Under the pieces are notes generated by a model, which worked only from the letters and a program-made list of their open reading frames with translations, ran no database searches and was not told the origin of the DNA. A stretch of DNA of 64,000 nt, taken from an uncultured Rickettsiales bacterium (GTDB lineage: Bacteria > Pseudomonadota > Alphaproteobacteria > Rickettsiales > CANDYO01). The stretch covers positions 51,323 to 115,322 of the forward strand of contig CAYHIS010000003.1 in NCBI GenBank assembly GCA_964356785.1, in the 5' to 3' direction. Every line of letters starts with the position of its first letter. The stretch's first letter is position 1. The position numbers and the translations under genes are program-made. Below are positions 9,882-11,093 of the stretch, piece after piece.

Positions 9882-11093
9882 ATGAGATATTTATTTCTGC
9901 TTTTATTCATCCACTCATATGCCTATTCTATTGGGGATAAGGTAAGAAATTCTGCATATGAACAAATTGAGAAATTTAAAAATATAAAGCTTTCTCAAGA
10001 AGAAATAGATAATATTTGGAATGATAAAGAAATTCGAAATAAATATAGATTAGCAAGAATCCAGATTATCAACAATAAGGTTTATGCAGATTCATATGAT
10101 ATAAGAGACGGGATGTTGTTAGACTTTGTTTTGTATTTTAAGAAATTGGTCTCAAGATACAAGATAAAAAATACAGATATATTGATTCATTGCCTTGAAG
10201 GGTTTTATACCGAAGAAAAATTTCCTTTACCAAGTTTTATGGTAACAAAGAATCTCAAAAATATTGGAGAAAAAGATCGCCTTCTTTTACCAGATGCGAC
10301 CTTCATTAGAGAAAATATATGGAAAGATCTTACCGCAAGTATATTAGAAGCGAATAAAAACAATCCATGGGACAAGAAATTAGATAGAATTTTTTGGCGA
10401 GGCAAAACAACTGGTGGAGATCAAGCTGTATACAATATAAATAATATTGCTAAATTACCTAGATTAAAAGTGGTTTTGCTTTCATCGCTTTATCCCAATC
10501 TTATAGATGCAAAGTTTACTAGTTATCCTCGTTTTTATTTTGAAGAAAATAGTAAATTACAAGAAATTTTAAAGTTGATGGCCCAAGGTAAAGATCAAAA
10601 AGTTTCTCAAAAAGATCATTTAAAATATAAATATCTTTTGTCCATTGATGGAAATAGCTCTGCCTGGGAAAGGGTTCCCTGGATCATGATTTCTAATTCA
10701 GTTTTAGTAAAACAAGAAAGCGTGAATATACAGTGGTTCTATCCAGGTTTAAAACCATATTATAATTATGTTCCAATAGATGAAAAAATAGAAAATATTT
10801 TTTCTCAACTTGAGTGGATGAAAGCTAATGATCAAAAATTGCAAGAAATAGTAGAAAATGCCAACCATTTTGTAGCTAATAACTTAATGCCAGAACATAT
10901 TGATGAATATGCTTCTTTAATTTTAAATGAATATAGTAAACTATTCACTACAAAAGATTTAAAACCTTCTCTGCCCTCAACAGATAATATTGTATCAAGA
11001 ATGAATGAGGAGCGTTTTAATAGAATGTCTACTATAGAGAAAATAGATATGTATCTAAAAAAATTAGAAAATAAACTAGAGCAAATCTTCTAA
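9882..11093 (+). CDS. secreted GT90/CAP10-domain glycosyltransferase (POGLUT/KDELC-like), paralogue 1
   Basis: Signal peptide 'MRYLFLLLFIHSYAYS'. 'IFWRGKTTGG' and 'KYKYLLSIDGNSSAWERVPWIMISNSVLVKQES...YNYVPI' match the CAP10 core. About 55-60 % identical by eye to the ORF at 35841-37094. Confidence 0.7.
   Translation: MRYLFLLLFIHSYAYSIGDKVRNSAYEQIEKFKNIKLSQEEIDNIWNDKEIRNKYRLARIQIINNKVYADSYDIRDGMLLDFVLYFKKLVSRYKIKNTDILIHCLEGFYTEEKFPLPSFMVTKNLKNIGEKDRLLLPDATFIRENIWKDLTASILEANKNNPWDKKLDRIFWRGKTTGGDQAVYNINNIAKLPRLKVVLLSSLYPNLIDAKFTSYPRFYFEENSKLQEILKLMAQGKDQKVSQKDHLKYKYLLSIDGNSSAWERVPWIMISNSVLVKQESVNIQWFYPGLKPYYNYVPIDEKIENIFSQLEWMKANDQKLQEIVENANHFVANNLMPEHIDEYASLILNEYSKLFTTKDLKPSLPSTDNIVSRMNEERFNRMSTIEKIDMYLKKLENKLEQIF

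Follow-up and report, generated by a model that had tools for sequence, protein, structure and literature searches.

The 64,000-nucleotide stretch of DNA analyzed here (contig CAYHIS010000003.1 of an uncultured Rickettsiales bacterium, positions 51,323 to 115,322; below, the window, with its first letter as position 1) carries two genes for glycosyltransferases of the GT90 (CAP10/POGLUT-like) family, both with predicted Sec signal peptides, and we propose to place them in a large clade that has expanded among intracellular bacteria of the Rickettsiales type. As to their role, we tentatively favor a reading that we consider a serious possibility, a little short of probable, namely that both genes belong, as scattered members, to a set of exported enzymes by which an envelope glycan is built or decorated outside the cytoplasm, probably from nucleotide sugars of the host. 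The family assignment itself is already known, since NCBI labels these proteins from metagenome-assembled genomes (MAGs) “glycosyl transferase family 90.” The Sec-exported form of GT90 appears to be new, as do its multiplication in lineages of the endosymbiont type and the recurrent grouping of its genes with those of other exported, eukaryote-typical transferases. Our literature search on GT90/CAP10 proteins of bacteria and intracellular pathogens found no paper on this clade, and XpApiT from Xanthomonas pisi was the only biochemically characterized bacterial GT90 that it returned.

Both genes lie on the forward strand, copy 1 at 9882..11093 (403 amino acids) and copy 2 at 35841..37094 (417 amino acids). 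They match Pfam Glyco_transf_90 (PF05686) with 104.8 bits (E = 6.4e-30) and 113.7 bits (E = 1.3e-32), respectively, far above the gathering score of 24, with no second Pfam domain above threshold in either protein; this search, which an earlier note on this DNA had proposed as a check, bears out its placement of both products in GT90/CAP10. Both open reading frames are exact, and the blocks that the note had described as common to them (HLKYKYLLS(I/L)DGN...PWIM.SNSVLVKQES..IQW.Y..LKPY.NYVP) are found in both. The two proteins align over 353 residues with 43% identity and 65% similarity (E = 1e-99), and in each the GT90 domain starts at around residue 55 to 72, behind a short clade-specific N-terminal segment. 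Neither copy matched an NCBIfam model. Among sequences in the PDB, phmmer found only human POGLUT2 (9w47; E = 1.9e-28), POGLUT1 (5l0r), and Drosophila Rumi (5f84) as relatives, and a 39-sequence profile (A1) matched them with E values of 2.8e-42, 1e-28, and 1e-21, respectively.

The likeness extends to the fold. An AlphaFold2 model of copy 1 (pLDDT 87.2, pTM 0.83) shows the two-domain, GT-B-like architecture of the POGLUTs, and its only strong Foldseek matches are POGLUT2 (9w47; E = 3.6e-20), POGLUT1, and Rumi (E = 4e-20 to 1e-16), at 20 to 22% identity and with TM-scores of 0.65 to 0.78 (0.78, on the target, for POGLUT1 entry 5l0t); the next matches are generic GT-B folds with E values of about 5e-4. 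In POGLUT2, the catalytic base is D238, the diphosphate-binding residues are R310, S312, R316, and R376, and the uracil contacts are H353 and I354; the R316A and R376A variants have less than 5% activity, and D238N nearly abolishes it (PMC13084666). The base of POGLUT1 is D133 (PMC5543122).

To locate these positions, we used a MAFFT alignment of 194 family members with the POGLUT2, POGLUT1, and Rumi sequences. The base column, within the motif R/G-D-(Y/W)-P, holds Asp in 151 of the 194 sequences and Glu in 36. Glu is also the residue of the two window proteins at this position (Glu106 of copy 1, 10197..10199, plus strand; E122 of copy 2, 36204-36206), so that the carboxylate is kept. A putative donor-diphosphate site of copy 1 (10398..10673, plus strand) comprises R173 (10398-10400), T177, R194 (10461-10463), D256-G257, and R264 (10671-10673), aligned with R308, S312, R316, D369-G370, and R376 of POGLUT2. 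The active-site positions of copy 2 (36204..36695, plus strand) include, besides E122, R197 (36429-36431), R217 (36489-36491), D277-G278, and R285 (36693-36695). Arginine occupies the WRG column (R308) and the R316 equivalent in 190 sequences each and the R376 equivalent in 161, with all three present in both copies, and the S312 position is Thr in both (T177; T201), as in POGLUT1. The R310 position is variable (K in copy 1, M in copy 2, S in POGLUT1); of the uracil contacts, H353 is not conserved and I354 stays hydrophobic. Because the base carboxylate and the Arg and Thr residues of the donor site are kept, the donor chemistry, that is, a diphosphate-linked donor and an inverting mechanism, looks intact in the alignment; the idea that the proteins are pseudoenzymes was rejected on account of the same conserved residues. 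The acceptor site for epidermal growth factor (EGF)-like repeats does not look intact by the same comparison, with T in copy 1 and F in copy 2 at the EGF-contact column D271 of POGLUT2, P and S, respectively, at F338, and variation across the family in both columns.

POGLUT2/KDELC1 (9w47), POGLUT1 (5l0r), and Rumi (5f84) are protein O-gluco/xylosyltransferases of the endoplasmic reticulum (ER) lumen, belong to CAZy GT90, and share Pfam family and fold with the window proteins. The latter also resemble them in the WRG, Arg, and D-G/Arg donor motifs, in the acidic base residue, and in an N-terminal signal sequence predicted to put the catalytic domain outside the cytosol. Unlike POGLUT2/3, the window proteins have neither a filamin domain nor a C-terminal KDEL-type signal (they end in ...KLEQIF and ...RIKTWK), carry Glu at the base position, and differ at the variable D271 and F338 positions. 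They further differ from POGLUT2 in that R310 is not conserved (nor is it in POGLUT1) and in an added C-terminal tail of 30 to 40 residues, and from all POGLUTs in being bacterial genes whose family forms tandem arrays and glycan clusters. The window proteins are GT90 members, not POGLUT orthologues. The label “eukaryote-type” that the note gave them is apt for sequence, fold, and donor-site residues, and holds as resemblance only; the eukaryotic origin that it suggested for the genes is plausible. The C-terminal tails are basic (mean, +2.5), aromatic-rich, and helical. We considered them as amphipathic membrane anchors or secretion signals, but their hydrophobic moment lies only about 1 standard deviation above that of shuffled sequences, which is not significant, and they were not used as evidence.

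Signal peptides were called with a heuristic that considers hydrophobicity, charge, and the residues at −3 and −1, combined with the clade-wide conservation of the cleavage site. In copy 2, the predicted Sec signal peptide (35841..35891, plus strand; residues 1 to 17, MLRIISIIILFFNVAFA, followed by SELITIDAEKY) ends in A-F-A at −3 to −1, directly before the acidic mature N terminus that is conserved in the clade. That of copy 1 (9882..9929, plus strand; residues 1 to 16, MRYLFLLLFIHSYAYS, followed by IGDK) has an n-region Arg, a hydrophobic core, and A-Y-S at −3 to −1, and is the weaker of the two, with a shorter and less hydrophobic core and without the clade's mature motif ELKxI[ST][AP]Ex[FY]. 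According to the heuristic, both nonetheless show the features of Sec and signal peptidase I substrates (positive n-region, core of 7 to 15 residues, small residues at −3 and −1, and no positive charge immediately behind the site), in agreement with the cleavable-looking signal peptides noted earlier. The same heuristic flags a signal in 60 of 87 full-length homologues from the loci that we retrieved, with no member of the Rickettsiales clade missed, and in 79 of 110 full-length representatives from a search of 1.84 billion proteins. Among 89 clade members with the motif xELKxI[ST][AP]Ex[FY], the −1 residue is A or G in 76, A and S predominate at −3, and the mature protein starts with acidic residues; with ∼10 to 14 residues, the hydrophobic cores are short. 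Since the conserved −1/−3 residues and acidic mature start match the needs of signal peptidase I, and since the Sec translocase motor gene secA is present in the window (44189..46912, plus strand; Pfam SecA_DEAD, E = 1e-130, plus other SecA domains), a housekeeping gene that is not specific to GT90, export of both proteins is well supported by prediction. A membrane anchor alone would not explain a pattern that corresponds to a signal peptidase I requirement.

The family to which the two genes belong is large and unevenly distributed. An initial search returned 137 relatives with ∼40 to 48% identity, nearly all of 410 to 450 amino acids and many on shared contigs, and the search of the full library returned 7286 cluster representatives with E ≤ 1e-3, of which 282 had E ≤ 1e-30. 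In a scan of one genome per species, we found 61 GT90 loci: Rickettsiales MAGs scored highest (40 to 48% identity), followed at 24 to 37% by Legionella, Francisellaceae, other gammaproteobacterial MAGs, many Chlamydiae, Holosporaceae, Paracaedibacteraceae, and Verrucomicrobia, along with a few free-living bacteria (Actinoplanes, Nonomuraea, and Solilutibacter). The same fold occurs in giant viruses (iridoviruses and klosneuviruses, from a BFVD search) and in a phage. In a neighbor-joining tree, the bacterial sequences form broad clades that largely follow taxonomy, chiefly one largely of the PVC group (Chlamydiae, Verrucomicrobia), one mainly gammaproteobacterial with a few others, and a Rickettsiales clade of 123 sequences that includes both window copies. 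POGLUT2 is sister to the bacterial sequences in this tree, which included only three eukaryotic sequences, so that its position carries little weight. A profile search seeded with distant bacterial members and fragments of POGLUT1, POGLUT2, and Rumi returned only bacterial MAG proteins. Among ten mid-ranking representatives of the family, the one with an informative name came from a Chlamydiota MAG. Recent horizontal transfer was considered on the basis of composition and gave no signal: the two genes have a G+C content of 28.6 to 28.9%, inside the 27 to 36% of the other genes of the window (31.7% overall).

Tandem GT90 arrays are common among the relatives, with six copies in L011/L063 and L057 (our locus numbers), four in L027 and L069, and three in L003, L006, and L070. 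Copy 2 has relatives at 57 to 65% identity in related MAGs, among them the proteins P0082 and P0112, which are encoded in arrays upstream of waaA, and copy 1 has no relative above 48% identity outside its own genome, which indicates that the duplication that separates the two copies is old.

The genomic surroundings of these relatives carry the argument for an envelope glycan. The gene order prf, GT90 array, waaA, infA, maf, ispE is common to L063 (7250-16715, six GT90 genes) and L070 (10001-15098, three GT90 genes), which come from two different Rickettsiales MAGs; the difference in array length suggests ongoing tandem gain or loss. The assignment of waaA, which encodes the Kdo transferase of the lipopolysaccharide (LPS) inner core, is backed by an NCBIfam match (E = 1.6e-106), and the first gene of the L070 array, upstream of waaA, encodes a 63% relative of copy 2. 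A further waaA gene lies 7 kb from GT90 in L002. Other loci place GT90 among glycosyltransferases of different families. In L066 (843-14506), genes for Acyl_transf_3, a hypothetical protein, a methyltransferase, two Glyco_trans_1_2, GT4, a hypothetical protein, three GT90, GT4, and OmpA follow each other on one strand with short or overlapping junctions; L068 (8547-15032) has the order PPDK, GH130-like, GT90, GT4, GT4, GT90, FolB, and L065/L005 (5477-10461 in L005) the order PPDK, GT4, methyltransferase, GT90, GT4. In these operon-like clusters (L066, L068, L005, and also L035, 4317-10268), GT90 genes alternate with GT4 or Glyco_trans_1_2 genes, methyltransferase genes, and an Acyl_transf_3 gene. 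The genes listed for L066 and L068 include no Pfam family typical of an initiating phosphoglycosyltransferase, a Wzx flippase, or a Wzy polymerase, which would fit an assembly route in which no lipid-linked intermediate has to be flipped.

Family counts, made without statistics against a genome-wide background, give the same picture. Within 5 kb of GT90 at 15 Rickettsiales-clade loci (134 genes), GT4 ranks first (6), followed by ClpB, HemB, PPDK, Glyco_trans_1_2, and WaaA, and no type IV secretion system (T4SS), ankyrin, or OTU family is found among the 25 commonest neighbor families. The corresponding census of 27 gammaproteobacterial and PVC loci (137 genes) yields ABC transporters, NAD-dependent sugar-nucleotide epimerases/dehydratases, GT11, Polysacc_synt_2, Glyco_trans_1_2, ABC-2, methyltransferases, and GT9. 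We therefore regard the GT90 family as embedded in glycan biosynthesis; many of the loci compared are MAG fragments, with the usual uncertainty of binning. The earlier note had named a conserved LPS gene neighborhood, together with orthology to characterized LPS-core enzymes, as what would speak against its host-directed proposal. Such a glycan neighborhood is present in the relatives (waaA adjacency; clusters with GT4, Glyco_trans_1_2, and Acyl_transf_3; GT9 and ABC-2 in PVC bacteria) and absent at both window copies, and there is no characterized LPS-core orthologue.

The partner enzymes also appear to face outward. GT4, Glyco_trans_1_2, methyltransferase, GH130-like, and small hypothetical proteins of the Rickettsiales clusters have a Lys-rich start followed by a hydrophobic segment, and in 17 of 19 partner proteins the net charge of the N-terminal flank of this segment is at least that of the C-terminal flank; under the positive-inside rule, this bias predicts an N-in, C-out orientation. 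Three WaaA controls from the same loci, which have a cytoplasmic catalytic domain, show the opposite bias (0 versus +3 to +5). From these charges we infer that the catalytic domain of the partner enzymes is periplasmic. In Chlamydiae and Verrucomicrobia MAGs, signal-bearing GT90 genes adjoin GT11 genes (alpha-1,2-fucosyltransferase family) whose products have clear AEE-type signal peptides (L025, 5592-6485, minus strand; L044, 8580-9458, minus strand; L051, 9088-9963, plus strand); we know of no bacterial GT11 enzyme with a signal peptide among those described. A signal-less GT90 subclade (L043 and L059 from Parachlamydiales; Anoxychlamydiales) adjoins cytoplasmic epimerases, GT9, GT4, and an MsbA-like ABC exporter, which suggests that the GT90 family builds glycans in both settings.

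One partner candidate is encoded in the window itself. A CAP59-like glycosyltransferase gene (Cryptococcal mannosyltransferase 1, GT69-like; open reading frame 347..1408, minus strand, probable start 1390) lies 8.5 kb from copy 1; its product matches PF11735 with 34.8 bits (gathering score, 28.8), contains a DMD motif, and starts with a Lys-rich N-terminal anchor (MKTKFVSLFILIIIIIFSAL, followed by EIKE). Homologues lie directly downstream of GT90 in L013 (PF11735, 49.6 bits) and ∼3 kb away in L016 (25.0 bits, below the gathering score), and the 90 relatives that we found are, where named, from Rickettsiales or Holosporales MAGs; four of the 90 are on contigs equal in length to contigs with GT90 matches. 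Judging from this co-location, the CAP59-like enzyme is a probable partner of GT90. It is also the second “fungal capsule-type” family of the window besides GT90: the capsule of Cryptococcus neoformans involves CAP10/Cxt1, a GT90 beta-1,2-xylosyltransferase, and CAP59/Cmt1, a GT69 mannosyltransferase, and the window has both families (two GT90 genes and one CAP59-like gene). Like the fungal CAP10 and CAP59 proteins, the window enzymes are predicted to be signal-anchored and would be expected to cooperate, beyond the cytosol, in making a surface polysaccharide. The parallel has its differences, in that the PF11735 match in the window is modest and the compartment would be the bacterial periplasm or surface, not the Golgi apparatus; a xylomannan-like product of the window enzymes is speculation.

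Taken together, these observations suggest the following scenario for the two genes. They would encode catalytically competent, inverting, nucleotide-sugar-dependent GT90 enzymes that the Sec pathway exports with cleavage of the signal peptide, and that would work in the periplasm or at the cell surface together with anchored or exported GT4, Glyco_trans_1_2, and CAP59-like enzymes and, in other phyla, GT11. The product would be an envelope glycan, either an extension of the LPS core or a coat resembling a capsule or slime, and as donor the enzymes would use a host sugar nucleotide that reaches the periplasm via porins or the vacuole lumen via host transporters. Export, partner topology, host origin of the donor, and identity of the acceptor are the steps that we infer.

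In the textbook view, bacterial transferases that use nucleotide sugars act in the cytoplasm, since activated sugars are absent from the periplasm, and the donor paradox that the earlier note raised for an exported GT90 is real. For an intracellular bacterium, host UDP- and GDP-sugars offer an answer to it, as they are small enough for porins or could be brought into the vacuole by host transport. Uptake of UDP-glucose from the host is known for Rickettsia (PMC5615194). In Chlamydia, a secreted GlgA converts host UDP-glucose into glycogen within the lumen of the inclusion (PMC4829429). GlgA of Chlamydia trachomatis, a bacterial GT-B enzyme that works outside the bacterial cytoplasm, in the inclusion lumen, on host UDP-glucose delivered via SLC35D2, is a precedent for the proposed logic (PMC4829429), although, unlike the window GT90 proteins, it belongs to another glycosyltransferase family, leaves the cell by type III secretion instead of Sec, and makes a storage polymer instead of an envelope glycan. 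The closest bacterial comparison within the family is XpApiT. Like the window proteins, it is a bacterial GT90/CAP10 enzyme; its gene shares a glycan operon with that of another transferase, and its product is thought to be a cell-surface glycoside (PMC6193724). In contrast to the window genes, that of XpApiT lies directly beside a gene for its own UDP-apiose/UDP-xylose synthase, and the enzyme is active when coexpressed with the synthase in Escherichia coli; no signal peptide is reported for it, and only its C-terminal ∼200 residues match CAP10 (PMC6193724), whereas the window proteins have predicted signal peptides.

The earlier note had proposed a different use for the exported enzymes, namely, action on host substrates or in a host compartment. 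After Sec export, the proteins would leave the cell in outer-membrane vesicles, by a TolC-type route, or upon lysis, and would glycosylate host proteins or glycans in a vacuole, an ER-like lumen, or the cytosol with host UDP-sugars. Several features are consistent with such a role: the closest solved relatives of the family are protein O-glucosyltransferases; most of its members come from lineages that live inside cells (Rickettsiales, Legionella, Francisellaceae, Chlamydiae, Holosporaceae, and Paracaedibacteraceae); paralogue arrays of up to six genes are typical of host-interaction families; the acceptor-side positions that correspond to D271 and F338 of POGLUT2 vary among paralogues, which would fit diversifying targets; and copy 2 lies beside OTU, ankyrin, and VirD4 genes in a window that also encodes YopJ-like and ADP-ribosylglycohydrolase proteins. 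The comparative context nevertheless does not back the step to host substrates. The proximity of copy 2 to the VirD4/OTU genes is real in the window, as the note had observed, but it is not a conserved feature of the family: the 57 to 63% relatives of copy 2 adjoin waaA, and T4SS, ankyrin, and OTU families are absent from the common neighbors. Clusters with an O-acyltransferase, a methyltransferase, several transferase families, OmpA, ABC-2, and GT9 point to a multistep bacterial glycan instead of a single protein modification. The proteins have no filamin domain or KDEL signal, the EGF-contact positions that we checked are not conserved, and we identified no outer-membrane secretion route for them. 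A Sec signal is atypical for substrates of a VirD4-coupled T4SS, and the window proteins, with such a signal and with VirD4 proximity in this window only, do not have the profile of VirB/D4 (rvh) effectors. They also stand apart from Legionella Lgt1-3, SetA, and clostridial-toxin-like enzymes, the class of bacterial glycosyltransferases acting on host UDP-glucose that the note implied. Such effectors are GT-A enzymes without Sec signals that reach the host through Dot/Icm and act on its cytosolic proteins, whereas the window proteins have a POGLUT-like GT90 fold, predicted Sec signals, and relatives that cluster with envelope-glycan genes. We therefore consider host-directed action unlikely, although it comes next to the envelope glycan in our estimate, and the part of the proposal that concerns a host compartment may hold in the sense that the donor sugar nucleotides would come from the host.

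Two further explanations dispense with a host donor, and we judge each of them to be quite improbable. In one, the exported enzymes would use a sugar linked to undecaprenyl diphosphate or undecaprenyl phosphate at the periplasmic face, with the arginines binding the diphosphate. This accommodates the well-predicted export and the general use of lipid-linked donors for periplasmic glycan modification in free-living bacteria, as well as the fact that the diphosphate-binding arginines are the best-conserved donor contacts while the uracil contact H353 is not conserved and I354 is hydrophobic; the window also contains uppS (1934-2644), albeit as a housekeeping gene. However, no GT-B or GT90 enzyme is known to use polyprenyl-linked donors, the known periplasmic enzymes that do so being integral-membrane GT-C proteins, once cleaved, the clade members should be soluble by prediction, and the intracellular bias of the signal-bearing forms would be left unexplained. 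In the other, the proteins would be glycan or LPS-core transferases that face the cytoplasm, held by an uncleaved N-terminal anchor as in WaaA and supplied with the bacterium's own nucleotide sugars. WaaA of the same loci, a cytoplasm-facing enzyme with an N-terminal hydrophobic helix, provides a template for this arrangement, signal-less bacterial GT90 proteins exist in ordinary clusters, some gammaproteobacterial and PVC loci encode cytoplasmic sugar-nucleotide enzymes, and ApiT of X. pisi shares its operon with a UDP-apiose synthase gene (PMC6193724). Yet an anchor alone leaves the small −1/−3 residues and acidic mature start unexplained (76 of 89 clade members), the charge bias is opposite to that of the WaaA controls, and cores of ∼10 to 14 residues are typical of cleaved signals, not of membrane-spanning helices. 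For the window copies, the predicted cleavable signal speaks against a cytoplasmic catalytic domain.

The exported, host-fed envelope glycan toolkit that we favor over these alternatives has several points to contend with. Neither window copy lies in a glycan cluster, the immediate neighbors of both being unrelated to glycans, and the cluster argument is carried over from relatives that are 40 to 65% identical to these unclustered genes. Both copies have Glu instead of Asp at the base position. Some gammaproteobacterial and PVC loci hold cytoplasmic sugar-nucleotide enzymes beside anchor-bearing GT90, which is awkward for a host-supplied donor. All assignments of topology come from heuristics, and the intracellular lifestyle of the organism is itself read from gene content only. 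Finally, we know of no periplasmic GT-B enzyme that uses nucleotide sugars in any bacterium.

A GT90 clade that is predicted to be exported, conserved across Rickettsiales-like MAGs, and clustered with other transferases that look exported breaks the textbook pattern of cytoplasmic sugar transfer, and signal-bearing relatives also occur in MAGs derived from Legionellales, Chlamydiae, and Verrucomicrobia. The break would be understandable with donors drawn from the host cytosol or vacuole. If true, this would be a new kind of metabolic parasitism, in which construction of the envelope is outsourced to host metabolites, and could explain the protective coats of environmental Rickettsiales; the enzymes, being reachable from outside the inner membrane, would be interesting targets. 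It also offers a testable function for a family of 7286 cluster representatives (E ≤ 1e-3) in which we found one characterized bacterial member. A broader version of the idea, which we regard as possible but doubtful, is that obligate intracellular bacteria of several phyla run a “Golgi-like” extracytoplasmic glycosylation line, in which exported or signal-anchored GT90/CAP10, CAP59-like, GT11, GT4, and Glyco_trans_1_2 enzymes and anchored methyltransferases would make a surface glycan in the periplasm or at the cell surface straight from host nucleotide sugars and host S-adenosylmethionine, without initiation on a lipid carrier, flipping, or polymerization, with the window genes as dispersed members. 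Were the host-directed explanation true instead, the two proteins would be, as far as we know, the first bacterial mimics of Notch-type O-glucosyltransferases.

Around the two GT90 genes, the window contains ordinary alphaproteobacterial housekeeping genes with scattered eukaryote-like genes, and no gene for donor synthesis lies near either copy. Judged by this gene content and by the names of the closest MAGs, the organism is a Rickettsiales-like alphaproteobacterium. Copy 1 is flanked on one side by an ADP-ribosylglycohydrolase/outer-membrane efflux protein (OEP)/MFS unit and on the other by a lytic transglycosylase gene. The former unit (5667-9798, minus strand) is tight and operon-like and combines a 420-amino-acid protein with an ADP-ribosylglycohydrolase domain, an odd partner for an efflux pump, with an outer-membrane efflux protein and an MFS transporter. 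Toward copy 2, the order is TolC, DUF2497, Ank, VirD4, Ank, an acidic open reading frame, and OTU, and after it come AAA_14, murC, and mutL; copy 2 starts 63 bp downstream of the OTU protease gene and 2.3 kb from virD4. Within this region (31029-35777), virD4 (31826-33568) has no adjacent virB genes and is flanked by two ankyrin-repeat genes, the Asp/Glu-rich 204-amino-acid open reading frame (34479-35093, minus strand) has no Pfam match, and the OTU-family cysteine protease (35268-35777) comprises 169 amino acids. Promoter-like matches around copy 2 are at chance level, and no terminators were found there.

Elsewhere in the window, directly after secA, a gene at 46976-48496 (plus strand) encodes a 506-amino-acid protein whose YopJ-family Ser/Thr acetyltransferase domain (PF03421; E = 3.2e-8) has a fold typical of eukaryote-targeting effectors. 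An RNase D-like 3′-5′ exonuclease (41657-42274, minus strand) has a subthreshold match to TcdA/TcdB glucosyltransferases (E = 3.4e-4; 20.4 bits, gathering score 23.6), which is probably due to chance. Between spoT and iscU/hscB lies a gene (16100-18460, minus strand) for a 786-amino-acid protein that consists mostly of pentapeptide repeats. Two adjacent paralogous genes at 56289-57784 (minus strand), beside tRNA-Leu and tRNA-Arg, encode small OMP_b-brl/Opacity-like beta-barrels of 214 and 209 amino acids; these may serve as porins or surface antigens, and host metabolites might enter through them.

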